Below, one piece after another: positions 15,030 through 28,200 of a DNA stretch of 32,000 bases. The notes beneath the pieces were generated by a model. It was not told where the DNA came from, did no database searches, and worked only from the letters and a program-made list of their open reading frames with translations. Each line of letters begins with the position of its first letter. The first letter of the stretch is position 1. Made by a program: the position numbers and the translations under genes. Source of the stretch: Paenibacillus swuensis (GTDB taxonomy: Bacteria > Bacillota > Bacilli > Paenibacillales > DY6). The DNA lies in the NCBI RefSeq assembly GCF_001644605.1, contig NZ_CP011388.1, positions 4,957,752-4,989,751 on the forward strand, read 5' to 3'.

Positions 15030-15364
15030 TAAAAGCCTCCTTATAGTCGTGTATCCGGGCAACAAAAAAACGCACACATCCCTGTAAGAAGGGACGAGTG
15101 CGTGCGCTCGTGGTTCCACCCTAAATTCGATCCGCGAAGGAATATCAGCATCCTGCTTGCGCTGTCCTTGCGATCCTCATTAGCATTCGTTAACGGAAAT
15201 GACCCGGTGAATGATACTTTCAAGCTTGTAGCCTGGGTTCCCATTCACTGCTGCAAAGGGGTAAATTCTGTATTGGTGCGGAAGGAAATTTCAGCTGGAT
15301 TCCTCTCTCTGGACCGTCAATTGCAGAATTATTGTCTTTGTTCATGGCATCCTATATCCAAGTC
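15030..15364 (-). promoter_or_regulatory. T-box riboswitch leader of thrS
   Basis: The minus strand carries the T-box motif AATTTAGGGTGGAACCACGAGCG (15105-15127), which overlaps the 5' arm of the terminator. The Stem I region contains AGAGAG and GCTGAAA elements and an AGTGAA/GGGAAC distal motif. The tentative Thr specifier is ACC followed by A, at 15275-15277. Confidence 0.8.
15064..15106 (-). terminator. T-box leader terminator
   Basis: The minus strand reads CGCACGCACTCGTCCC-ttcttac-AGGGATGTGTGCG followed by TTTTTTT. Confidence 0.85.
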
Positions 15365-15444: not shown

Positions 15445-16362
15445 CTAAGTCAACGTGGATCGTTGTTCCTTACGGAAATCTCCCAAATGAGGCGAGCAAG
15501 ATCCGCAAAGCGTGCACAGGGTGGCTCGATCATCAAATATTTGCTTGATCGTCTTAATCACTTGCATTTCGGGTTCCCGGGTATGAATAAATACCTTTTG
15601 AGGGGATACGGTAATTAACGTGCTCACAATCATATCTTCATAATTGATATCTTTATCAATCATCTCCACCACGAACGTCTCCACCTGTTTCGTTTCGATG
15701 GGCTCGAAATCCTCATTCAACAGAATAAAGTCGTTTTCCCCTTTATGCATGAGGTGCGCCACGGGTATTTTGGCATCTTGAATATATACGAAATATTTTA
15801 ACAAAGCGATGAATTCCTGATACTGTTTATCCATCAGATACTCGTCTATCGCATATTCAACCACTTCGCGCAGTTCTTCCGCATAGGCATGAAGCCTGAA
15901 ATGAATGAAACCGTCGATGTTCACTTCAGGAAACTCTTCAAGATATGTGATAAAAGCCAAGGCGATCTGATTTTTTCTGCGTTTTCTCGCCTGATGACCT
16001 CCGATTTCTTCTTCGGACTGGTCCAAAATATGAAGCGTATAGGTTTCGATTTTTGAAATCTCATCCCTTATTTTGTAAGCATACTCGTTGATAATCATTT
16101 TTTTGATAATCCGCTCTTCATACTCTGCAAGAACATAAGAGGCTATACCGCGCCCCGCCCGTTCTCGGACCTTGTTTGCAAGCTCCGTATCGGTCTCATA
16201 CCAAGTACATCTTAACCCCACAAGTTCCTGCTCCGTCTCCGTATCTATGAACACCTTCAAAGAATCTATATGTAACTCCCGGAGTTCCTCCATTAACTCG
16301 CCGAACAGCTTATCAACCTGCGTCTCCGACCCTTTAGCCATCCACAAGGTAAACAGCTCCAT
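15445..16362 (-). CDS. ytxC: YtxC-like putative sporulation protein
   Basis: This 305-aa acidic protein sits immediately upstream of thrS, as ytxC does in Bacillus subtilis. The call rests on synteny plus a general resemblance, with no search run. Confidence 0.6.
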   Translation of the reverse strand: MELFTLWMAKGSETQVDKLFGELMEELRELHIDSLKVFIDTETEQELVGLRCTWYETDTELANKVRERAGRGIASYVLAEYEERIIKKMIINEYAYKIRDEISKIETYTLHILDQSEEEIGGHQARKRRKNQIALAFITYLEEFPEVNIDGFIHFRLHAYAEELREVVEYAIDEYLMDKQYQEFIALLKYFVYIQDAKIPVAHLMHKGENDFILLNEDFEPIETKQVETFVVEMIDKDINYEDMIVSTLITVSPQKVFIHTREPEMQVIKTIKQIFDDRATLCTLCGSCSPHLGDFRKEQRSTLT

Positions 16363-16473
16363 GACATCGCTCCTTTCTCTTCTCTACTCAAGTTTATGTT
16401 TCAAGAGAAACAGATATACGACGAAGCATTTGGAATCCCCGCGGGTGTATAAAATAACCTCTTTCCAATTGGG

Positions 16474-16522
16474 TTCAATAATAAAACCCCTAACATTCGG
16501 TGGATACCGAAGTCAGGGGTTC
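16474..16522 (-). terminator. Rho-independent terminator after the MqnC-like gene
   Basis: The minus strand reads AACCCCTGACTTCGG-tatccac-CCGAATGTTAGGGGTT followed by TTATTATTG. Confidence 0.75.
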
Positions 16523-16537
16523 TCGTTTCAGTTTACG

Positions 16538-17671
16538 CTAATTCTGCATAATAAAATCTTTGTTCACTGTGGCCGAAGCATCATCATATACACGCAAAAT
16601 CTCATATTTGGTGTTTCGCTGCGCAGGAATTTTACCTGCTTCACGAATCAGTCTGAGAATGGATTCGATGTTGACTTTATGCGTTGTGCCCGCGGCGGAT
16701 ACGACATTCTCTTCAATCATCGTGCTGCCGAAATCATTACAACCGTAGGATAGCGTGGTTTTGCCTACTTCAGGACCCATCGTTACCCAGGAGGACTGGA
16801 AATTGGCTACATTGTCCAGCATAATACGGGAAATCGCCAATGTCTTCAAGTACTCCTCGGGCGACACCTTCTCCGCTTTCATGTTCGTATTGTCCGGTTG
16901 GAAGGTCCATGGGATGAAAGCCAGGAATCCGGGCGTCTTGTAACCATGGCTCAAGCATTCATCCTGCGCGTCTCTGATTCTCTGCAGATGTAACGCCCGC
17001 TCCTCCATAGACTCTCCGAACCCGATGACCATCGTGCCCGTAGTGTGCATGCCAATGCGGTGCGCCGTTTGCATCACATCCATCCAGTCCCTCCAGGAGC
17101 CCTTCAGACGGCTGATTTTGCGTCTTGTGCGGTCATCGAGAATCTCGGCGCCGCCACCCGGCAGAGAGTCTAAGCCGGCTTCGTGCAACTCACGGACAAC
17201 CTGCTCGAGGGGTAATCCTGACACCTCAACCATCTTCATAATCTCCGCGGGGGAGAAAGAGTGCATCGTAATATCAAAGCGTTTCTTAATCTCTCGAAGC
17301 AAGTTCGTGTAATAACTGAATGGTAAATTGGGATTGGTTCCGCCCTGCATCAGAATCTCGGTTCCATCCACATCAAGCGTTTCCTGGATTTTCTGAAAAA
17401 TCGTTTCATCTGGCAATACATAACCTTCATCGGAATTCGGGGAACGATAGAACGCGCAGAATCGGCAATACACATCGCATACGTTCGTATAATTTATATT
17501 CCGCCCGACCACAAATGTGGTAATCGGCTCCGGGTGCCATTTCAGCATAATTTGGTTAGCTACATTACCTATCTTCTCAACCTGATCGGATTCAAACAAC
17601 GTGATACATTCTTCTGTATCAATCCGCACGCCGGTCGCAGCCTTATGTAAAATTTGTTCTACTGTACTCAT
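16538..17671 (-). CDS. mqnC: Radical SAM enzyme of the MqnC/MqnE/CofH family, most like cyclic dehypoxanthinyl futalosine synthase (MqnC)
   Basis: The radical SAM cluster motif is NINYTNVCDVYCRFCAFYR (CxxxCxxC). A GGTNP motif is present. The 377-aa length and overall layout fit the futalosine-pathway radical SAM enzymes. I cannot separate MqnC from MqnE by eye. Confidence 0.6.
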   Translation of the reverse strand: MSTVEQILHKAATGVRIDTEECITLFESDQVEKIGNVANQIMLKWHPEPITTFVVGRNINYTNVCDVYCRFCAFYRSPNSDEGYVLPDETIFQKIQETLDVDGTEILMQGGTNPNLPFSYYTNLLREIKKRFDITMHSFSPAEIMKMVEVSGLPLEQVVRELHEAGLDSLPGGGAEILDDRTRRKISRLKGSWRDWMDVMQTAHRIGMHTTGTMVIGFGESMEERALHLQRIRDAQDECLSHGYKTPGFLAFIPWTFQPDNTNMKAEKVSPEEYLKTLAISRIMLDNVANFQSSWVTMGPEVGKTTLSYGCNDFGSTMIEENVVSAAGTTHKVNIESILRLIREAGKIPAQRNTKYEILRVYDDASATVNKDFIMQN

Positions 17672-17766
17672 GGGGAGTCACTCCTTACTCGATCGAAATC
17701 CTGTTTCCTACATCGTATCACAAACACTCTCTACCGTCATCCACTGGCGAGCCTTAGAGCCTTAGC

Positions 17767-19845
17767 TTAGATGCCGCGCCAGTTCCACGGACCCAGCCAC
17801 TTCATTAATGAAGGAATGAGGAGCAACCTGATGATTGTCGCGTCTATAAACACAGCCGCCGCGATTCCAATGCCCAATTGCCTGACCCCCGCCACATCTC
17901 CGGCGGCGAACGGTGCGGTAACAGCCATCATAATCAACGCCGCCGATGTAATAATTCCTCCTGCGGAGGCAAGTCCTTCAGCAACAGCTTGTTCATTATC
18001 CCCTGTCAGCCTGTAATGCTCAGCGATTCGGGACAACAGAAACACCCCGTAGTCCATGGAAATGCCGAACACCAGTCCGAATATGAAGATAGGAATCATG
18101 ACGGCCACCGCCTCATGACTTTCACCGCTGATCCACGGCGAAACCATAACCAGTACCCCATAGGCGGCACCGATGCTCAAAGCATTCATTAGCAAAGCCT
18201 TAAGGGGGATGAGGAATGAACGAAATGCGATGTAAAGAACGATAAAATTGGACAATACGATAAAAATCAATGCCCCCGGCATTGACTTTCGAAGGGTCTC
18301 AAACACTTCTTGCTGATACTTCGCTTCACCGCCCCATAGAATTGTTAAAGGTTCTGGGAGTTGAAGTTGCTCCCATCGTGTCATCCAGGTCTGTACTGCC
18401 GCATCGGAAGGGCTCCCTTTCAACGTTACTTTCAACACCGTGGAATCTTTGCGAAGAAGGGCTTGAACCGGCAGCCCTTGTCGGGAGAAGACGGACTGCA
18501 CATGGATAACTTGTGGATCCGACGTCAGAACCTTGATTACAGTACGAATATGTCCCAAATCCTGACGGGTGAGTTGCCGATTATCCTTGCCTATGATTGC
18601 CCATACCTGATTGACCGGGGTTTCATTGTTCGCTGAGTGGGTCTGAAAAACCTCCTCCCAGTCTTCGAAAGCTTGTCTTGACGCATATTCAGACGGGAGC
18701 GAGCTGGCATCGGGAATAGCGATTCGCATATCGTTTAACGGCAGCAGGCAGACAAGCAGCAAACCGGATCCGAACATAATTACCGTTCCTGGGCGGCGCA
18801 TGACCGCATGTGCGGACCAGCGCCATATTCCCGCGGTTTTCATGGGGTAACGCGGCGCGCGCAAACGTTCGGACAGCCTATACAAGATGACCGGGAGCAA
18901 GGTTAAAGTCAGAAGGACCGATAACAAGAGTACTACCATAGCACCCCAAGCGACCGATGCGAATATGGGCATGGGAATAAAAGCGATTCCTGCCAGTCCC
19001 AAAGCCACGCAGGCTGCAGACAGCACAACGGCCCTGCCCGCGGTCTCCATCGTGATGCGTAAAGCATCACCCGCAGAGCGCCGGTGTAACTCCTCCCGAA
19101 ACCGGCTGACCATCATAAGCGCAAAATCTATGCTTAACGCCAATCCCACCATCGGGATCACATTCAAAACAAAAGAGGAAAGCTCCGCATGCTTACCAAG
19201 CTCGGCCATAAAGCCCATTGCGCCTGCGACAGAGATTACTCCCATCCATACGGGCAATAAAGCGGCCCAAACGCTTCCGAATGCCAGCCACATGATGATA
19301 AAGGCAATGGGGATTCCTAAGCTTTCGGCTTTACCTAAATCGGTTCGACTGGCCGCGTTGACATCCGTTTGAACAACCTTGCTCCCTGTCAGCCTGACGC
19401 CGATTCCTTCCTGTGGCGGAAAAACCTGACGAAGCTCCTTTAGCGCCCCTTCCATTTCACCGGAGGGTTGGCTGAATTCAATCAGTGCGTAAGCGAAATT
19501 CGCTTTACGCATCTCGGGTCTGTTGACAGGTGAAATGATCTTCTTTACACCCTGAATGCTCGCGGCAACGTGCAATCTTTGCTCCAAGTAGGATTGAAAT
19601 TCATCCGAAGACACCTTCTTTTGAACGTCAAAAAGAACGATAACCGGATCTTCAGGAATTCCGAAGTCCTCCGACAATACATGTTGAACATCGTTATAGG
19701 ATCCCTGTGTTCGTAATCCGTGATCATGCAGAACAGCGGGTAAGTCAGACGCATGCGCAGCGAACCAGCTTAAACAAACGAGCCAAGTGATCAGAATGCC
19801 GCGAGGATACCGGATTGCCTTGTCTGCAAGCCATAAATACAGCAT
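17767..19845 (-). CDS. MMPL-family (RND superfamily) membrane transporter
   Basis: The protein has two repeats of about 6 TM helices, each carrying the MMPL signature (LALSIDFALMMVSRFREEL and FGISMDYGVFLLSRIAEHY), with large extracytoplasmic loops. The start is refined to the ATG at 19845 (MLYLWLADKAIRYPRG). The ORF-track start at 19941 would overlap the upstream gene by 53 nt and add a Cys/Arg-rich non-membrane extension. Confidence 0.85.
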   Translation of the reverse strand: MLYLWLADKAIRYPRGILITWLVCLSWFAAHASDLPAVLHDHGLRTQGSYNDVQHVLSEDFGIPEDPVIVLFDVQKKVSSDEFQSYLEQRLHVAASIQGVKKIISPVNRPEMRKANFAYALIEFSQPSGEMEGALKELRQVFPPQEGIGVRLTGSKVVQTDVNAASRTDLGKAESLGIPIAFIIMWLAFGSVWAALLPVWMGVISVAGAMGFMAELGKHAELSSFVLNVIPMVGLALSIDFALMMVSRFREELHRRSAGDALRITMETAGRAVVLSAACVALGLAGIAFIPMPIFASVAWGAMVVLLLSVLLTLTLLPVILYRLSERLRAPRYPMKTAGIWRWSAHAVMRRPGTVIMFGSGLLLVCLLPLNDMRIAIPDASSLPSEYASRQAFEDWEEVFQTHSANNETPVNQVWAIIGKDNRQLTRQDLGHIRTVIKVLTSDPQVIHVQSVFSRQGLPVQALLRKDSTVLKVTLKGSPSDAAVQTWMTRWEQLQLPEPLTILWGGEAKYQQEVFETLRKSMPGALIFIVLSNFIVLYIAFRSFLIPLKALLMNALSIGAAYGVLVMVSPWISGESHEAVAVMIPIFIFGLVFGISMDYGVFLLSRIAEHYRLTGDNEQAVAEGLASAGGIITSAALIMMAVTAPFAAGDVAGVRQLGIGIAAAVFIDATIIRLLLIPSLMKWLGPWNWRGI

Positions 19846-19888
19846 GAGGATGATTCGCCCCTTCCGGTTTTCGCACCCGTTTCTCTCC

Positions 19889-21061
19889 TTAGCCTCGGAG
19901 TCTGGTCGCCCTGAATATTTGGTTGGACATGAACGGAGCAACCTTGCCTAAGCCAAAAAGAATCGTCCCCATCCCTGTTGAAGAAAGTGCCCCCTGGAGC
20001 CACTTTCCCATTCGAACCGGAGACGTAAATTCACGAGTAAGCTCGCGGGTGTACGCGATTTGCCAGCCATCCATCGTCAGATCCCCATATAAGTACCGAT
20101 GCGCCAGCGGCAAACCTAATTGTGCGGAACGCAGCGCCATCGCCATTCCGTCACCGCATAACGGAGGAATCATCACAGCGGCATCGCCTATAAGCGGAAA
20201 GCGGCTCCATGCCTTAAGCTGACGGTCCAGTCTTACCGGTGATGTAGCGGAAAGGCTGCCGACAATCGGTGAACCAACCGCTAATCGTTTGCGTAAGGCA
20301 GGGTTCTGGGTGGATGCCGATTCGATTGCGGCGGCAACGCTTTTACCCGCTTCCTGAAATGCTCGCTCCGTCATCAGCGCGGTTACATTCGTGCGTCCCT
20401 CTTCAATAGGACATAGACCGATGTAACCGCCGCGAAAAAAGTAAAGTTCCACCGCGCCTCCGGCCGGAACTTCTTCGTAATGCGCTTTAATACCCACATA
20501 GGTTACCGCTCTGGTTCTTGATGCAGAAGAGGGCACAGCAGGATCGTTTACGGCTAAATCCGCCCGAGGATGCCGTCCCCACGCCGCAATTACAGATTTG
20601 GCCGTTATCGAAGAATGGGGTTCCTGCCCTCCTTTGGTGTACGCTTGAACCAGATAAGTCCCGTTTTCATTGCACTTCACCGCGGAAACCGACGTACCGC
20701 CTAACCACAGCGCGCCAAGTTCCTCCGCTCTTTGTTGCATGATGAAATCCAGCTGATACCTGCTGATCCCCATTGCCTTCTCCCGCATGGGAATGGTCAG
20801 TGTCGCGCCGTTGGCCAGTGTCAGAATCGCCTTGTCTATTTCAGCGGGACCTATCGCATCAACGGCTTCTTGAAGTCCAAGGACATGCAACATAGCTATG
20901 GATTCCGGGGAAAGGAACTCCCCGCATACCTTATGCTTCGGTAAATTGTTCTGATCCATAAGGACGGTGTTCCATCCGGCTTTAGCCAACCCAATCGCCA
21001 TGGAGCTGCCGGCCAAGCCACCGCCAATGATGACAGCGTCTGCTTTATCGGGTGGGAACAT
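19889..21061 (-). CDS. FAD-dependent oxidoreductase/monooxygenase (geranylgeranyl-reductase/UbiH-like fold)
   Basis: The N-terminal dinucleotide-binding motif is DAVIIGGGLAGSSMAIGLAKAG...VLMD. A later GDAA-type motif is LIGDAAVMIPPLCGDGM. The RBS is GAAGGAGA, 8 nt upstream. The gene overlaps the methyltransferase stop by 17 nt. Confidence 0.8.
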   Translation of the reverse strand: MFPPDKADAVIIGGGLAGSSMAIGLAKAGWNTVLMDQNNLPKHKVCGEFLSPESIAMLHVLGLQEAVDAIGPAEIDKAILTLANGATLTIPMREKAMGISRYQLDFIMQQRAEELGALWLGGTSVSAVKCNENGTYLVQAYTKGGQEPHSSITAKSVIAAWGRHPRADLAVNDPAVPSSASRTRAVTYVGIKAHYEEVPAGGAVELYFFRGGYIGLCPIEEGRTNVTALMTERAFQEAGKSVAAAIESASTQNPALRKRLAVGSPIVGSLSATSPVRLDRQLKAWSRFPLIGDAAVMIPPLCGDGMAMALRSAQLGLPLAHRYLYGDLTMDGWQIAYTRELTREFTSPVRMGKWLQGALSSTGMGTILFGLGKVAPFMSNQIFRATRLRG

Positions 21062-21806
21062 GAACTGATTCTCCTTCAGCAGAGACCGATTGACAGATCA
21101 CTGCGTACCGAAATAAGGGCCTCCACTTATAAGTAAGCAGGACCTCATCATGGCAAGAATCAGCCAGACGATTCCAATCGGCCGCCCGGAATCCCTTGGC
21201 CACGGATAACGGACCATCATGCTGAATATAACGGTTCCGCGAAACCAGACGGGTCATGAGCCATACCGCCGACCAGGAAATCCAGTGCCGGTGAATATCG
21301 TTGATTACTACCCCGATCCGGGAGGCCCGGTGCATACAACGTAAAGCCTGTGTCAGCGTATCCCCCGTGAAATGATGAAGAAATTGAGTTGCGGTAACAA
21401 TGTCTGCCGTATCTTTACCGCTTATTCGGAACAGATCCCCCTGTACAACCTGAATTCGCGGTTCATTCGAGTAATAACGGACTGCTTCCGCACAAGCTTC
21501 CTCGGTAATGTCCATTAACGTAATCTGTACTTGAACTCCTTTGGTGTCTGCCCATGTAAGCAATCGCCTGTTTACGTCACCCGATCCCGCACCAATATCC
21601 AACACGGTCAGCTCCGTCGGTTTACCGGAAGCCTCCCATAAACGTTCGATACCATAAATGGTAGGACCTGCTGCGGCAAAGATCCGGTTAAGCCGTCTCA
21701 AATGACGCAGCGCCTCTGTTAACTCCGGCCCCCCTTGATCCAGTTGATCCATATATTCCTCAAGGGTGGATCTTTTCTTCAACAAGCTAAACATGGTAGC
21801 ATGCAT
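21045..21806 (-). CDS. Class I SAM-dependent methyltransferase
   Basis: The SAM-binding motif I is VLDIGAGSGDV, followed by an acidic post-I residue (LMDITEE) and motif II (VTATQFLHHF). An alternative start at 21794 (MFSLLKK) exists. Either start overlaps the T3PKS stop. Confidence 0.8.
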   Translation of the reverse strand: MHATMFSLLKKRSTLEEYMDQLDQGGPELTEALRHLRRLNRIFAAAGPTIYGIERLWEASGKPTELTVLDIGAGSGDVNRRLLTWADTKGVQVQITLMDITEEACAEAVRYYSNEPRIQVVQGDLFRISGKDTADIVTATQFLHHFTGDTLTQALRCMHRASRIGVVINDIHRHWISWSAVWLMTRLVSRNRYIQHDGPLSVAKGFRAADWNRLADSCHDEVLLTYKWRPLFRYAVICQSVSAEGESVHVPTR

Positions 21807-22950
21807 CCTCAGGCTGAGAATGGCTGCTCATTATTCCAGGAACGTAATGAAACTTGAGCAATTCAGCTGTTAGGCCTGGACCGAATGCGGCCGCTACCCC
21901 GCTTGAACGCCGGGCGCTGGATGCGTTCAGCTCCCTTCTCATATCCTGAAGAACATAAATAATGGTTGCGGAGGACAGATTCCCCACTTTTCGTAACACC
22001 TCTCTGCTAACCCGCGTTTGCTCCGAAGTCAATCCCATACCTTTCTCAACAGCATCAATGATGCCTCTTCCGCCGGGATGAATAGCCCACAACTCAGGCC
22101 ATTCCTCCTCTTTCAACAGAACTTTGATTTCGAGGGGCAGATAGGCACCGATCCATTCCGGGATGCGCGGGGAAAGATACAATGAAAAGCCATAATTACC
22201 AATCTCCCAAGTCATCTCATCCGAAGAATCCGGCAGTAAGACGGAACGGTGCTCCCCCAACTCAAATACTCCGTCCCGCCCCCGCCTGCTCTCTGCTCCG
22301 CCAACAACACAGGCTGAAGCACCGTCACCGAAAAAGGCGGCCGCATATAAGTCCTCTTTGGAGGAGCTGGGTTGTATATGCAACGTACATAGTTCAACGC
22401 ACACAATCAGAACATGGGCTCTCGGCTGGCGATCTGCTATTTGTCGGGCCAAACAGACGGCCTTTAATCCTGCTGCGCATCCCAAATACTGCAGAGGGAT
22501 CCTTTCCACATCGTTGGAAAGACCCAGCCCTCGAATCAGCGCCGCGTCCAATCCAGGCAAAAAAAGACCTGTGCAGGTAACCGTAATCAGGTGTGTTATA
22601 TCATCAGCATCCAGCGCACTATCAATCAAAGCTCTTACGGCGGCCATGTAACCAAGTTCAACGGAAGCCTGCTTATAGAGTCCCATTCGTTCCGCTGTAG
22701 TAGGGATCTTGTCTTCCGGTGTTCCCGGCAAGTACATACTTCGGGGAGCGGGTTCAAGCAGGTTCGGTTCGCACGTATAACGGGTATCCACCCCGCATTG
22801 ATTGAATATTCTTCGCGCCCACCGCGAAGCGTCTCTGTCTTCGGACAAAGCGTCCGCCAGACGAGTGGCAGCCTCAGCTTGATTAACCTTATGGGGAGGC
22901 AGCGCCGTACCCAACCCGAGAATTGCCGGAGCAAGTGAAATAGTTCTCAT
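21787..22950 (-). CDS. Type III polyketide synthase (chalcone/stilbene synthase superfamily)
   Basis: The Cys-His-Asn triad contexts are LITVTCTGLFLPGLD (Cys), WAIHPGGRGIID (His) and VGNLSSATIIYVL (Asn). The 387-aa length is typical of bacterial T3PKS such as RppA, SrsA and BpsA. Confidence 0.9.
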   Translation of the reverse strand: MRTISLAPAILGLGTALPPHKVNQAEAATRLADALSEDRDASRWARRIFNQCGVDTRYTCEPNLLEPAPRSMYLPGTPEDKIPTTAERMGLYKQASVELGYMAAVRALIDSALDADDITHLITVTCTGLFLPGLDAALIRGLGLSNDVERIPLQYLGCAAGLKAVCLARQIADRQPRAHVLIVCVELCTLHIQPSSSKEDLYAAAFFGDGASACVVGGAESRRGRDGVFELGEHRSVLLPDSSDEMTWEIGNYGFSLYLSPRIPEWIGAYLPLEIKVLLKEEEWPELWAIHPGGRGIIDAVEKGMGLTSEQTRVSREVLRKVGNLSSATIIYVLQDMRRELNASSARRSSGVAAAFGPGLTAELLKFHYVPGIMSSHSQPEDACYHV

Positions 22951-23066
22951 CGTTCATCCATCCCCTCAGTTTGTCCATCCCTTGGAGGACAAGAAGTGTC
23001 TACCCTCATTGTATTAGCGAGGAAAGCCCTGTAGTACACCGAATATGCTTATCCTAAGTGTCGTCC

Positions 23067-23103
23067 AAAAAAAAAGAGGCAACCCCTATTCTTGGGCTGC
23101 CTC
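23067..23103 (-). terminator. Rho-independent terminator of the EAL gene, with the stop codon inside the loop
   Basis: The minus strand reads GAGGCAGCCC-aagaatag-GGGTTGCCTC followed by TTTTTTTTT. Confidence 0.8.
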
Positions 23104-24681: not shown

Positions 24682-25851
24682 TTACTCCTGTGCAAGAGCC
24701 CGTGATAAATCATCGATTAAATCCTCAATATCCTCCAAGCCTACGGAATACCGCAGAAGACCGTCTGTTATCCCGCGCTGGTGACGCACTTCCTTCGGCA
24801 TTGCCGCATGCGACATCATGGCCGGATAGGACAGAATGCTCTCAACAGCTCCTAAGGATACAGCTACCAATGGCAACTCGATCTTATCCAACACTTGCTT
24901 GGCGCGCTCGCCCGACCCGACATCAAACGACACAACGGCCCCGTAGCCCAGCGATTGGCGCTCATGAATCTCGCGTCCCGGATGGTCGTGCAGCCCCGGA
25001 TAATAGACCTTGGTGACCGAAGGGTGCTCGGATAGCCACTGAGCCAGTCTCCCAGCGCCGGTTTCCGAATATTCCATTCGGGCTTTAAGCGTCTTCATGC
25101 CGCGAATTAACAACCAGCAATCTTGTACGCCTAGTACGGTGCCCATCCCATTTTGCAAAATTTTCAGTCTGCGTCCCAGATTGTCGTCCGCAACCACCGC
25201 CAGCCCCGCAAGCACATCGCTGTGCCCCCCGAGGAACTTGGTGGCGCTGTGCAGAACGATGTCGATTCCGTGCTCGATTGGACGTTGATGATATGGGGTC
25301 ATGAATGTGTTATCCAGCATCGTAAGTAAATCATGAGATTTAGCCCATTCCGCAATCAAACCGATATCCGTAACTTTCAACGTTGGATTCGAAGGTGTCT
25401 CGATGTAGACCGCCTTAGTATTTGGTTGAAGAGCGGCCTTCACTTGGTTGAAATCGGTCATATCCACGAACGTGGTCTCAATGTTCATCCGGGACAGGAT
25501 GCTGGTTAACAACCGATAGGTTCCGCCGTAAACATCTTCTGTCACGATCACATGGTCGCCCGCCGAAAGCAGCATGAAGGTAGTGGAAATCGCCGCCATC
25601 CCTGAAGCAAAAGCGAACCCGCGAACGCCGCCTTCCAGCTTGGCGATATAATCCTCCAAAGCCTGACGGGTCGGGTTACCTGAACGGGAGTAGTCGAATT
25701 CCGGCGGATTTGCCAATGATTCGTGATGAAAAGTGGAAGCCTGATAAATAGGTACGGAGGAAGCTCCGGTATGTTTATCAATCTCAGATCCGAAATGGAT
25801 CAGATCCGTAGCAAATTTACGGCTGCGCGCCTTGGAATTATCCTTACTCAT
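24682..25851 (-). CDS. metC: Cystathionine beta-lyase (PLP-dependent Cys/Met metabolism family), MetC-like
   Basis: Family motifs are SRSGNPTR, SGMAAI, VYGGTYRL and the PLP lysine context HSATKFLGGHSD. The sequence is collinear with my memory of B. subtilis MetC. It is the second gene of a metI-metC pair, with an 8-nt overlap. Confidence 0.75.
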   Translation of the reverse strand: MSKDNSKARSRKFATDLIHFGSEIDKHTGASSVPIYQASTFHHESLANPPEFDYSRSGNPTRQALEDYIAKLEGGVRGFAFASGMAAISTTFMLLSAGDHVIVTEDVYGGTYRLLTSILSRMNIETTFVDMTDFNQVKAALQPNTKAVYIETPSNPTLKVTDIGLIAEWAKSHDLLTMLDNTFMTPYHQRPIEHGIDIVLHSATKFLGGHSDVLAGLAVVADDNLGRRLKILQNGMGTVLGVQDCWLLIRGMKTLKARMEYSETGAGRLAQWLSEHPSVTKVYYPGLHDHPGREIHERQSLGYGAVVSFDVGSGERAKQVLDKIELPLVAVSLGAVESILSYPAMMSHAAMPKEVRHQRGITDGLLRYSVGLEDIEDLIDDLSRALAQE

Positions 25852-27028
25852 ATGCGGCTACGCCTCCCTCAATTTCAAGTTTGGAAGAGGCAAGAGCCTG
25901 ACCGAGATCGGCGATAATATCATCCGCGTGCTCTATGCCCACCGAAAAGCGAAGAAGCCTGTCATCAACGCCTACCTGACGGCGAATTTCCTCGGGAATG
26001 GCCGCATGGGTTTGTACCGCGGGATAAGTCATCAGGGATTCGACCCCGCCAAGACTTTCCGCGAAAGCGATCAGCCGGATATGACGCAAGATCGGTTCAA
26101 CATAACGCGCATCCTTCACTTTAAAAGAAAGAATGCCTGTGTTTCCGGACGACTGCTTTCTTTGGATATCGTAATTCGGGTGATCCGGCAGCGCAGGATA
26201 GTATACATCGGAAATGGCTTCATGCGTAAGGAGATATTCCGCTACCTTCGTCGCGTTATATTCATGCCTTTCCATCCGGAGCGCCAGCGTCTTCATTCCT
26301 CTCATCAACAACCAGCTGTCTTGCGGTCCAAGTACGGCGCCAATGGAGTTATGCAACAGCGCCATCCGCTCGGACAAAGCTTCTCCTTTGGTCACAATTA
26401 GCCCAGCCAGAACGTCATTATGCCCGCCTAGATACTTGGTTGCGCTGTGAATGACAATATCCGCGCCTAACTCAATCGGTCTTTGCAAGAAAGGAGTCAG
26501 AAGCGTATTATCCACAATGGTCAAAATGCCGTGCTTCTTCGCCCAAGTCGCGACCTCGGCGATATCCGTAATCATCATAAGGGGATTCGTAGGCGTTTCG
26601 ATCAGAACGGCTTTGGTGTTTGCCGTACGGCTGGACTCCAGCGCATCAAGGTTATTCGTGTCCACATAAGTGGCCGTAACGCCGAAGCGCAGCATAATAT
26701 CCTCAAGCAAACGATAAGTGCCTCCGTACAGGTCTAATGAAACTATTAAATGATCCCCTTGGCTGAAATAAGCAAAAATCGTCTGTAACGCCGCCATTCC
26801 CGAAGAAGTCGCAAATCCCGCATCCCCCGACTCCAGTTCCGCGATGGCATCTTCCAGAATCGTACGGGTGGGACTCTTGGTCCGGGCATAATCAAATCCC
26901 GTACTCTCTCCTAATTTGGGATGACGGAAGGCTGTAGATTGGTAGATTGGGAAGCTGATCGCTCCCGTTACTGGCTCCGATATAGATCCGATTTGGGCCA
27001 AACGGCTTTCGATTTGTCTGGAAGTCAT
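25844..27028 (-). CDS. metI: Cystathionine gamma-synthase / O-acetylhomoserine thiolyase, MetI-like
   Basis: LAQIGS...VTGA.S.PIYQSTAFRH...GESTGFDYARTKSPTR...HSATKYLGGHND...CFAESLGGVES...LLRFSVGIEHA closely parallels my memory of B. subtilis MetI (YjcI). Confidence 0.8.
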   Translation of the reverse strand: MTSRQIESRLAQIGSISEPVTGAISFPIYQSTAFRHPKLGESTGFDYARTKSPTRTILEDAIAELESGDAGFATSSGMAALQTIFAYFSQGDHLIVSLDLYGGTYRLLEDIMLRFGVTATYVDTNNLDALESSRTANTKAVLIETPTNPLMMITDIAEVATWAKKHGILTIVDNTLLTPFLQRPIELGADIVIHSATKYLGGHNDVLAGLIVTKGEALSERMALLHNSIGAVLGPQDSWLLMRGMKTLALRMERHEYNATKVAEYLLTHEAISDVYYPALPDHPNYDIQRKQSSGNTGILSFKVKDARYVEPILRHIRLIAFAESLGGVESLMTYPAVQTHAAIPEEIRRQVGVDDRLLRFSVGIEHADDIIADLGQALASSKLEIEGGVAAYE

Positions 27029-27057: not shown

Positions 27058-27975
27058 TTAAATGCCTTCGCCTAATTCAAACGGGGTTTCCTGGTACACA
27101 TAATAGTTGAGCCAATTGGAAAATAACAGATTCGCATGCGCTCTCCATCGTGTAATGGGTTGCCTTGACGGATCGTCATTGGGGTAATAATTTTTGGGGA
27201 TGGCGATATCCATGCCCTTGGAAACATCGCGGTCATATTCCCATTTCAATGTGCATGGATCATACTCCGAATGTCCCGTAACGAAAATATGCTTGCCGTC
27301 CTTCGTGGCAACAAGATATACCCCCGCCTCCTCGGATTCAGAAAGAATTTCCAGCTCATCCACCTTCTCGATATCCTCCCTGCAAATGTCCGTATGGCGG
27401 GATTGCGGAACGTAAAACTCTTCATCGAATCCGCGCAACAGCTTAACATTCTGCTTTGATACCTGATGAGGGAACACGCCGAATACTTTATTGTCCAAAG
27501 TATACTTGGGGATGCCGAAATGATGGTACAGACCCGCTTGAGAGGCCCAACACACATGCATGGTCGACGTAACGTTGCGCTTGCTCCACTCGAAGATCTG
27601 GGTCAGTTCATCCCAGTAGTTCACATCTTCGAAGTCCATCAACTCCACAGGCGCGCCCGTGATAATCATACCGTCGAAGCGATCTTTCTTGATATCATCA
27701 AACGTCTTGTAGAATTGCTCCAAATGCAAGGCGGATGTATTTTTGGAGGTATGCGTCTTCGGTTTAAGCAACACACATTCGACCTGCAGCGGGGTATTCC
27801 CGATTAAACGCATAAACTGCGTTTCTGTCGTTTCCTTTGTGGGCATCAGATTCAGGATCACTATTTTTAACGGACGAATATCCTGTTGAAAAGCGAATGA
27901 TTCATCCATCACGAAAATATTTTCTTGACTTAACACTTCTTTAGCGGGTAAAGTATCCGGTATTTTGATCGGCAT
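27058..27975 (-). CDS. metA: Homoserine O-acyltransferase (MetA family)
   Basis: [11 protein letters not shown]...[17 protein letters not shown]...PLQV and the catalytic-region segment [10 protein letters not shown]...HVCWA are canonical MetA. The start is taken at the ATG at 27975. The ORF-track GTG at 27987 abuts the RBS. Confidence 0.9.
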
Positions 27976-28013
27976 TAGTGGTAGCACTCCTCATCTGTGT
28001 ATTTCATGTTTCG

Positions 28014-28200
28014 CCAAAAAACAACAAAAACCCTTCTCTACATAGAGAAAGGTTCACGAACGCAAAAAAAGGTTCACCTCTCTCATCTCTCAGAAATTTA
28101 CGTTTCCGCAAGAATTAGCACCGTGCGCTCCGGATCTTGGATCCAAACGTCGGTTGCCGGGTATCATCGGGCCAGTCCCTCCACCTACTCTTGATAAGAG
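28014..28200 (-). promoter_or_regulatory. SAM-I (S-box) riboswitch with terminator, controlling metA-metI-metC
   Basis: The minus strand reads CTCTTATCAAGAGTAGGTGGAGGGACTGGCCCGATGATACCCGGCAACC...GGTGCTAATTCTTGCGG...GAGAGATGAGAG, which is the canonical S-box core. It is followed by the terminator CCTTTCTCTA-tg-TAGAGAAGGG and TTTTTGTTGTTTTTT. Confidence 0.92.

Follow-up and report, generated by a model that had tools for sequence, protein, structure and literature searches.

We analyzed a 32,000-nucleotide stretch of Paenibacillus swuensis DNA (the window), and our main finding is a compact unit of four co-directional genes, lying head to tail on the minus strand, that encode in this order a type III polyketide synthase (T3PKS), a methyltransferase, a flavin adenine dinucleotide (FAD)-binding flavoprotein, and a transporter of the MMPL family. 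This arrangement is far beyond chance, and its order recurs across dozens of species. From the sequence comparisons described below, we consider it rather probable that the operon makes and exports a tailored long-chain phenolic lipid. What is new relative to the literature searched is the fixed pairing of the enzyme trio with the MMPL gene, along with the likely sporulation-type promoter found in relatives, whereas the trio itself was already known.

The original prediction for this locus, made from the sequence alone, had described tightly packed genes with two overlaps, and its coordinates were all correct: the T3PKS and methyltransferase genes share 20 nucleotides (nt; 21787-21806), and the methyltransferase and flavoprotein genes share 17 nt (21045-21061). 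The first overlap is reduced to 8 nt if the methyltransferase starts at Met5 (21794), the start favoured by the alignment with the Paludisphaera enzyme discussed below. The refined start of the MMPL gene, placed by the same prediction 43 nt past the flavoprotein stop, was borne out as well, and this ATG is preceded by the ribosome-binding site GGAAGGGG. In agreement, the lengths of the T3PKS (387 amino acids) and of the transporter (692 amino acids) are those of the deposited P. swuensis proteins, with 100% identity and coverage. A scan of the junctions among the four genes detected neither terminator-like nor promoter-like sites. The intrinsic terminator of the upstream EAL-domain gene forms the 5' boundary of the unit, and the first terminator downstream is found after the next gene, mqnC, where none of 200 shuffled sequences folded equally well. 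The whole unit is thus flanked by two strong terminators (Table 1).

The conservation of this unit was assessed in 80 loci, each containing a T3PKS homologue and drawn from Paenibacillus, Cohnella, or a few metagenome-assembled genomes (MAGs), using tblastn and the unbiased clustering of open reading frames (ORFs). Only four gene families were widely recurrent, i.e., those of the T3PKS (80 loci), the methyltransferase (73), the flavoprotein (72), and the MMPL protein (38), and the enzyme trio was counted in 73 of the 80 loci. Wherever found, the MMPL gene was co-directional with the others and downstream of them; an orthologue was directly downstream in 37 loci, and the 38th (L047) has a distant MMPL gene of 26% identity, 3.3 kb off. 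The gap between the flavoprotein and MMPL genes ranged from -11 to +56 nt in 25 of the 30 loci with both the trio and the transporter. The reverse test gave a similar picture: the best 120 MMPL homologues showed 44-50% identity and belonged to Paenibacillus or close allies wherever the source was named, and the five homologues sampled from that side were all placed directly after T3PKS, methyltransferase, and flavoprotein genes, in unrelated chromosomal contexts (one of them next to an integrase, at a second P. harenae locus). The four-gene order was also observed in Neobacillus ginsengisoli, P. gansuensis, and Paenibacillus sp. UNC499MF. The cluster is not rare, being widespread in Paenibacillus and Cohnella and present in one Neobacillus.

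Seven loci of the P. amylolyticus group (L014, L022, L025, L027, L029, L032, and L033) keep the T3PKS gene directly followed by the MMPL gene and have neither the methyltransferase nor the flavoprotein, and the sister locus L026 has all four genes. Since the link between polyketide synthase (PKS) and transporter was kept after the loss of both tailoring genes in one lineage, we regard it as the core of the unit. In the T3PKS tree, the MMPL-bearing clusters were scattered over many deep branches, and the simplest reading would be an ancestral four-gene unit from which the MMPL gene was lost repeatedly. Sources annotate the transporter as an RND superfamily putative drug exporter, a 43-nt gap precedes its gene where the other junctions overlap, and about half of the trios have no MMPL gene; these facts would suit an unrelated drug-efflux gene that came to lie beside the trio by chance. 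We find this extremely improbable, because the gene has the same direction and an immediate downstream position in 37 loci, mostly with gaps below 60 nt, was retained where the tailoring genes were lost, followed the trio in five of five reverse-sampled loci from different chromosomal contexts, and in the window is separated from the flavoprotein gene by a gap with no promoter-like or terminator-like site. Collectively, the synteny and the clean reverse test indicate that the MMPL protein is a dedicated, co-inherited partner of the trio. The original prediction had coupled the trio to the transporter, and the coupling proved syntenic in both directions; the neighbourhood survey that it had proposed for the Paenibacillaceae showed the four genes to form a conserved unit. 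It had also stated that it knew of no characterised Firmicute cluster coupling this trio to an MMPL exporter, and in the literature searched we likewise found none linking a T3PKS to an MMPL protein in Firmicutes, although RND transporters beside cyanobacterial T3PKS clusters have already been noted (PMC8086630).

Several variations were seen around these clusters. In the P. amylolyticus, P. xylanexedens, and P. taichungensis group, the two-gene T3PKS-MMPL arrangement is a second locus, and other strains of these species carry a trio devoid of the MMPL gene. A flavin reductase gene lies upstream of at least one such two-gene locus (L014:9157-9777), and its ORF cluster spans eight loci. A gene for a FabF-like ketosynthase is inserted between the flavoprotein and MMPL genes in four loci (L070:12965-14248, L040:13193-14440, L071, and L077). 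About ten loci bear a fused DAO-Rieske FAD oxidoreductase of about 510-640 amino acids, encoded either just after the MMPL gene or just before the T3PKS gene (for instance, L070:16348-17883, L077:16257-17885, L016:7884-9800, and L093:1290-2828). Phage-type integrase or transposase genes stand beside the four-gene cluster in N. ginsengisoli (L084:5680-6669) and in the second P. harenae locus (L091:8659-10121), which hints that the unit may move horizontally as a block. Finally, a contig labelled Candidatus Udaeobacter (L086, GCA_035491515.1) contains a four-gene cluster with 56% T3PKS identity and a spore-germination permease gene, and its neighbours are those of Bacillus sp. FJAT-28004 (L094); a contig of Firmicute origin was probably misbinned here into a Verrucomicrobia MAG.

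The transporter matched PF03176 with 253.6 bits in two stretches (cut-off 20.5), and its alignment with the MmpL3 structure 7nvh scored 206 bits over both transmembrane halves. Asp240 in transmembrane helix 4 (TM4) and the pair Asp598-Tyr599 in TM10 were unchanged across 38 sequences. An orthologue of MmpL3, the trehalose monomycolate exporter, was ruled out, as the score against NF052608 was 232.8 bits for a cut-off of 1400. We know of no Firmicute MMPL protein with a known substrate. In mycobacteria, the genes of MmpL lipid exporters stand next to polyketide synthase genes; for example, MmpL7 is coupled with phthiocerol dimycocerosate (PDIM), and MmpL3 exports trehalose monomycolate. The P. 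swuensis protein resembles these transporters in being an MMPL/RND protein coupled to a polyketide-lipid pathway and in its conserved transmembrane Asp and Tyr residues; it differs from them in its short length of 692 amino acids without a C-terminal domain, and the mycobacterial partners are type I PKS or fatty acid synthase (FAS) systems of Actinobacteria. Another likeness is offered by cyanobacterial T3PKS clusters with RND, MFS, or ABC transporters, where an RND protein beside the T3PKS led to the inference of an extracellular role (PMC8086630). Nevertheless, those clusters are paracyclophane-like or cytochrome-b5-associated and not trios of the hid type, and their transporters have not been shown to be a dedicated, co-inherited subfamily.

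In line with the original prediction, the first gene encodes a genuine type III PKS. The protein matched Chal_sti_synt_N with 112 bits and Chal_sti_synt_C with 83.5 bits (Pfam cut-off 27), and its catalytic triad Cys158/His291/Asn324 was in register with those of stilbene synthase, Steely1, and Pks18 and unchanged across 81 T3PKS homologues. The possibility of a FabH-type enzyme (KAS III), which that prediction had named as the alternative, was ruled out because the FabH models gave 29-49 bits against cut-offs of 249-437, the best being 48.7 against 249. Trp248 was also unchanged in the 81 homologues. At the aligned position, Steely1 has a Trp and the pyrone synthases Pks18 and 2-PS have a Leu, the comparison being limited to these proteins since ArsC was absent among the PDB-search alignments listed. 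This conservation fits the rule described for Trp281 of ArsB in resorcinol formation (PMC9927152), lending indirect support to an alkylresorcinol product, and the enzyme is thus probably an alkylresorcinol synthase.

The second protein matched Methyltransf_25 with 49.6 bits (cut-off 27), and Methyltransf_11 and Methyltransf_12 were also above their Pfam cut-offs. All matches were to class I Rossmann-fold methyltransferase families, and no match to the isoprenylcysteine carboxyl methyltransferase (ICMT) family was detected in the Pfam search. It is a soluble, PRK06202-like protein, although its score of 142 bits against NF004851 (PRK06202) was under the NCBIfam cut-off of 243. The DIGAGSG motif of the window protein is part of a DxGxGxG pattern that, together with H144-H145 and D170-I-H-R, was unchanged across 74 sequences. 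The sequence search of the PDB returned no homologue of this enzyme.

The flavoprotein scored 56.4 bits against FAD_binding_3 (cut-off 22), and its best NCBIfam matches, all under cut-off, were the geranylgeranyl-reductase family, QhpG (78 bits), GoxB, and LodB. QhpG, GoxB, and LodB are aromatic-ring hydroxylases that build quinone cofactors. Identification as a geranylgeranyl reductase fails, because TIGR02032 gave 114.1 bits for a cut-off of 158.8. The nearest solved relatives are flavin halogenases, and the stretch GGYIGLCPI was aligned with WvWmIP of CmlS; the halogenase motif WxWxIP is absent, as the Tyr of this stretch was unchanged in 73 sequences and leaves no Trp at the first W position. 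The protein is consequently not a flavin-dependent halogenase. Its FAD motif is GGGLAG, the second Gly being Ala in 62 of 73 homologues, and both H43-K-x-C-G-E-F and G292-D293 were unchanged in all of the sequences that cover these columns (72 of the 73). The conserved Cys of KVCGE resembles that of geranylgeranyl reductases. The three sequence signatures pointed out in the original prediction, i.e., the Cys/His/Asn triad, the S-adenosylmethionine motif of the methyltransferase, and the dinucleotide fold of the flavoprotein, were all correct. Its flavin hydroxylase had to be reassigned: the protein is not of the UbiH type, and the NCBIfam and PDB matches place it in a branch related to geranylgeranyl reductases, QhpG, and halogenases. 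From these matches, we infer that it is an aromatic-ring hydroxylase.

The trio shares its ancestry with an operon type of Planctomycetota. In Paludisphaera borealis, where the order is methyltransferase, flavoprotein, and T3PKS, the window proteins showed identities of 29% for the methyltransferase (E = 1e-20), 30% for the flavoprotein (E = 1e-25), and 36% for the T3PKS (E = 2e-67), and all three alignments covered most of each protein. The tested T3PKSs of such mtr-fdo-t3pks operons make alkylresorcinols, and the Planctomycetota operon proteins are 48-55% identical to cyanobacterial HidABC (PMC10896814); the kinship between the window and Hid proteins is drawn through this published identity. 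This homology makes the trio a module of the hid type rather than the srs type. Both the hid (hierridin) operon of picocyanobacteria and the Planctomycetota operons combine the same three families, i.e., a T3PKS, a soluble class I methyltransferase, and an FAD oxidoreductase, in a tight operon. The usual order there is methyltransferase, flavoprotein, and T3PKS, but the alternative hidC, hidA, hidB is also known (PMC8086630) and equals that of the window. These operons differ from the window unit in having no transporter gene, whereas here the MMPL gene is fixed; moreover, their hosts belong to Gram-negative, non-spore-forming phyla, whereas relatives of the window cluster likely carry a sporulation-type promoter. 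When plasmids were searched with tblastn, the methyltransferase and flavoprotein co-occurred with a T3PKS in Proteobacteria, Planctomycetota, and Deinococcus, with the gene order of the window in Deinococcus radiodurans and Paracoccus, and a decayed trio of the hid type was found on a Microbacterium plasmid. The same search revealed no actinobacterial operon of the srs type, the matches in Streptomyces and Tsukamurella being other T3PKS clusters. On the D. radiodurans plasmid (L089, 5013-10726), the trio is followed by glycosyltransferase and phospholipase-D-like genes and no MMPL gene, which may reflect a different handling of the lipid product.

The original prediction had called the cluster srsABC-like. 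The pathway logic (alkylresorcinol, methylation, hydroxylation, and quinone) and the gene order T3PKS, methyltransferase, flavoprotein are indeed those of srsABC of Streptomyces griseus and pkqABC of Mycobacterium smegmatis, but the methyltransferase family is not, since SrsB is reported as an ICMT-family membrane enzyme (PMC6669644) and the window protein is a soluble class I enzyme. The same applies to the claim that the mycobacterial operon contains the same trio, which stands for order and logic and probably not for the family, PkqB being presumed, not shown, to be of the SrsB type. BpsB of Bacillus subtilis is also an ICMT-type enzyme. Thus, two unrelated methyltransferase families have been recruited to one logic of T3PKS, methyltransferase, and flavoprotein, and the label alkylresorcinol/srs-like used in cluster mining should separate them. 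A further likeness to srs and pkq would be the link to dormancy, as polyketide quinones (PkQ) are found in Streptomyces spores (PMC9927152); a further difference is that no transporter belongs to either cluster. The bpsA-bpsB pair is likewise a Firmicute T3PKS operon with a methyltransferase gene, reportedly upregulated in sporulation and with products that affect sporulation (PMC5686519), but it has two genes only, with no flavoprotein or transporter, and its main products are alkylpyrones. The unit had also been put forward as an undescribed system: the enzyme trio is of a known kind, and its common descent with the hid/Planctomycetota group had been overlooked, whereas the fixed MMPL pairing is undescribed in the literature searched.

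The region upstream of the T3PKS gene provided evidence on regulation. Sigma-E promoters have the textbook consensus ZHATAXX-14-CATACAHT, and our scoring used this pattern. The strict pattern was present in 14 of 81 T3PKS upstream regions and in 3 of 924 controls, the latter being the upstream regions of other genes at the same loci, and shuffled sequences averaged 0.35 matches per 81. A relaxed pattern was found in 23 of 81 regions against 6 of 924 controls, with the 14-nt spacer in 21 of the 23, and in an independent set of loci outside the motif discovery, it was observed in five of nine, plus two near-misses. The six control genes with a relaxed match (DctP, ArsR, MATE, nfo, one unknown, and one DAO-Rieske gene) are not sporulation genes and thus add nothing to the validation of the pattern, and the DAO-Rieske match belongs to the cluster neighbourhood. 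The layout in the relatives is TCATA(T/A)T, 14 nt, GAATA(G/C/A)AC, about 16 nt, and GCTTGTCC, the last being the reverse complement of the core of the SpoIIID consensus TAGGACAAGC (PMC11180830). This core was detected in 33 of 81 T3PKS upstream regions and in 83 of 924 controls. The motif counts suggest that the relatives likely carry a sigma-E-type mother-cell promoter, and a sporulation link would fit the reported upregulation of B. subtilis bpsA during sporulation (PMC5686519) and the presence of PkQ in Streptomyces spores (PMC9927152).

In the window, the corresponding boxes are those listed in Table 1. The TCTTGTCC box is about 43 nt before the T3PKS ATG, a position kept in many relatives. 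The sister P. gansuensis (L096) has TCATATT-14-AATACAAT-14-TCTTGTCC, and the last two boxes are common to the window; the AATACAAT octamer is identical in both, with GAG after it in P. gansuensis. An RNA element in the T3PKS leader was rejected, as there was no Rfam family match and the fold was unexceptional (z = 0.27), and on the same grounds, the boxes are more likely to be protein-binding DNA than RNA. A window-wide scan with the relaxed sigma-E pattern, made to find an internal reference promoter, gave two matches only, both uninformative. Upstream of the putative sporulation gene ytxC (15445-16362), the sequence GTATATC-14 nt-CATAAACT at 16391-16419 (minus strand) is a near-match to the sigma-E-type layout that fails the strict pattern at two -35 positions.

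A different motif, the sigma-B-like GATTAY-14-GGGTAA, was present in 13 of 81 T3PKS upstream regions against 3 of 924 controls. Twelve of the 13 were trio loci lacking the MMPL gene (L041, L050-L052, L054, L059, L063, L064, L066, L069, L078, and L080), with the motif about 77-86 nt before the T3PKS start, in a clade that includes P. amylolyticus, P. typhae, and P. illinoisensis; the 13th locus (L057) has an MMPL gene, and its match is 233 nt upstream. The sigma-E-like and sigma-B-like promoters suggest two regulatory regimes for the same enzymes.

Table 1. Features of the four-gene unit and its flanks in the P. swuensis window.
Feature	Position	Strand	Details
Intrinsic terminator of upstream EAL-domain gene	23076-23103	minus	10-bp stem, 7 GC pairs, then nine T
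GCATATT, perfect match to sigma-E -35 consensus	23042-23048	minus	26 nt from -10-like box, not 14
AATACAAT, -10-like box	23008-23015	minus	7/8 matches to CATACAHT
TCTTGTCC, SpoIIID-like box	22987-22994	minus	Reverse complement of GGACAAG core of TAGGACAAGC
GGACAAA, second inverted SpoIIID-like half-site	22970-22976	minus	Read from sequence
T3PKS gene	21787-22950	minus	387 amino acids
Methyltransferase gene	21045-21806	minus	253 amino acids
Flavoprotein (FAD protein) gene	19889-21061	minus	390 amino acids
MMPL gene	17767-19845	minus	ATG at 19845, stop at 17767; 692 amino acids
MMPL-mqnC spacer	17672-17766	minus	No terminator-like site; folds less stably than shuffles, z = +2.1
mqnC (cyclic dehypoxanthinyl futalosine synthase)	16538-17671	minus	TIGR03699 480 bits, cut-off 428
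Strong intrinsic terminator after mqnC	16483-16523	minus	-27.2 kcal/mol, z = -4.85, then UUUUAUUAUU

Based on these results, we propose the following pathway. The type III PKS, whose class is established, would extend a fatty-acyl starter with malonyl-CoA and cyclise the chain, most likely to a 5-alkylresorcinol. The class I methyltransferase would then methylate the ring, either on oxygen, like HidA, or on carbon, the site suggested for the Gimesia enzyme, and the flavoprotein would add a ring oxygen, yielding a methoxy-alkylphenol, hydroquinone, or quinone of the hierridin or alkylquinone type; the lipid chemistry is probably conventional. The MMPL protein, an RND transporter driven by the proton-motive force, would transfer the lipid out of the cytoplasmic membrane, either to the outer face or to the envelope. 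In the fifth step, suggested by the promoter motifs, the operon would be expressed in the mother cell during sporulation from a sigma-E-type promoter modulated by SpoIIID, and the lipid would go to the spore envelope or serve, once released, as a signal at the sporulation stage. The motifs make a strong case for this step in the relatives and a weaker one in the window, and for P. swuensis we hold sporulation control to be a little less probable than its absence.

The adjacent mqnC gene bears on another destination of the product. It stands alone, with no other mqn gene in the 32-kb window, and the 95-nt spacer before it showed no sigma-70-like promoter; with no terminator before mqnC and a strong one after it, read-through from the cluster would be possible in this genome. 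One could therefore envisage a polyketide quinone that stays in the membrane as an alternative respiratory carrier, with the MMPL protein only inserting or organising it and the adjacency of mqnC reflecting a switch between menaquinone and PkQ. The logic of T3PKS, methyltransferase, and oxidoreductase does yield PkQ in M. smegmatis, and in Streptomyces spores, the PkQ genes are up and the menaquinone genes down (PMC9927152), which would fit a sporulation promoter. Nonetheless, none of the 80 other loci had mqnC near the cluster, and P. gansuensis, with the entire neighbourhood in common, has a DinB-family gene that separates mqnC from the MMPL gene, so mqnC is a positional neighbour and a functional link to it as a conserved feature was rejected. 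In addition, the window methyltransferase is not of the SrsB family (the type presumed for PkqB), a membrane-resident carrier needs no RND exporter, the MMPL subfamily is cluster-bound (five of five sampled), and the seven PKS-MMPL loci have no enzymes for making a quinone. We accordingly judge the respiratory role to be distinctly unlikely.

Release of the product as a signal or antibiotic aimed at other cells, with the MMPL protein as an efflux or self-protection pump, shares the first four steps with our proposal and differs only in the destination, which the sequence cannot separate, and nothing decisive stands against it. The alkylpyrones of B. subtilis act extracellularly, delaying sporulation and killing some Bacillus strains (PMC5686519), anti-proliferative activity has been reported for hierridin analogues (PMC10896814), and in cyanobacteria, RND and MFS transporters in the vicinity of T3PKS clusters have been interpreted as signs of extracellular roles (PMC8086630). 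Yet alkylresorcinols with long chains are membrane lipids of low solubility, the cargo of the nearest characterised MMPL proteins consists of envelope lipids or siderophores and not of drugs, and the mother-cell promoter, if real, points to the spore as the destination. For these reasons, we rate this explanation as fairly unlikely.

Some observations weigh against the proposed synthesis and export of a phenolic lipid under sporulation control. The flavoprotein is under every curated NCBIfam cut-off, and because it keeps the Cys of KVCGE, like that of geranylgeranyl reductases, it could be a reductase and not a hydroxylase; the Gimesia oxidoreductase gave no assignable activity in Corynebacterium (PMC10896814). 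The TM4 motif of the transporter is Asp-Phe where MmpL3 has Asp-Tyr, and about half of the related clusters have no adjacent MMPL gene, with one MMPL-less clade under a different, sigma-B-like promoter. The window itself fails both sigma-E patterns, given the distance between its -35 and -10-like boxes. Finally, the literature searched contains neither a characterised Paenibacillus member nor product chemistry for one.

Phenolic lipids made by type III PKSs recur in dormant forms, such as Azotobacter cysts, Streptomyces spores, and sporulating Negativicutes. A tentative and somewhat unlikely extension of our proposal is that the pathway belongs to the mother cell, under sigma-E and SpoIIID, and that the MMPL protein brings the phenolic lipid to the developing spore envelope by moving it across either the membrane of the mother cell or the outer forespore membrane. 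If true, endospores would have their counterpart to the alkylresorcinol coat of Azotobacter cysts, and a substrate would for the first time be assigned to an MMPL/RND lipid transporter of Firmicutes. A compact four-gene unit in culturable Paenibacillus offers a simple system to study MMPL cargo outside Actinobacteria, and it lets one ask whether endospores incorporate phenolic lipids.

Two RNA leaders were recognised elsewhere in the window. A T-box leader is found upstream of thrS at 15087-15354 (minus strand), with 78.6 bits and E = 2e-17; the default scan missed it because this score is under the Rfam gathering score of 93. A SAM riboswitch (S-box) at 28080-28200 (minus strand), with 80.2 bits and above the gathering score, precedes a homoserine O-succinyltransferase gene (27058-27987), which is followed by two genes for pyridoxal phosphate enzymes of cysteine and methionine metabolism (25844-27028 and 24682-25851), and this region is an ordinary methionine operon.

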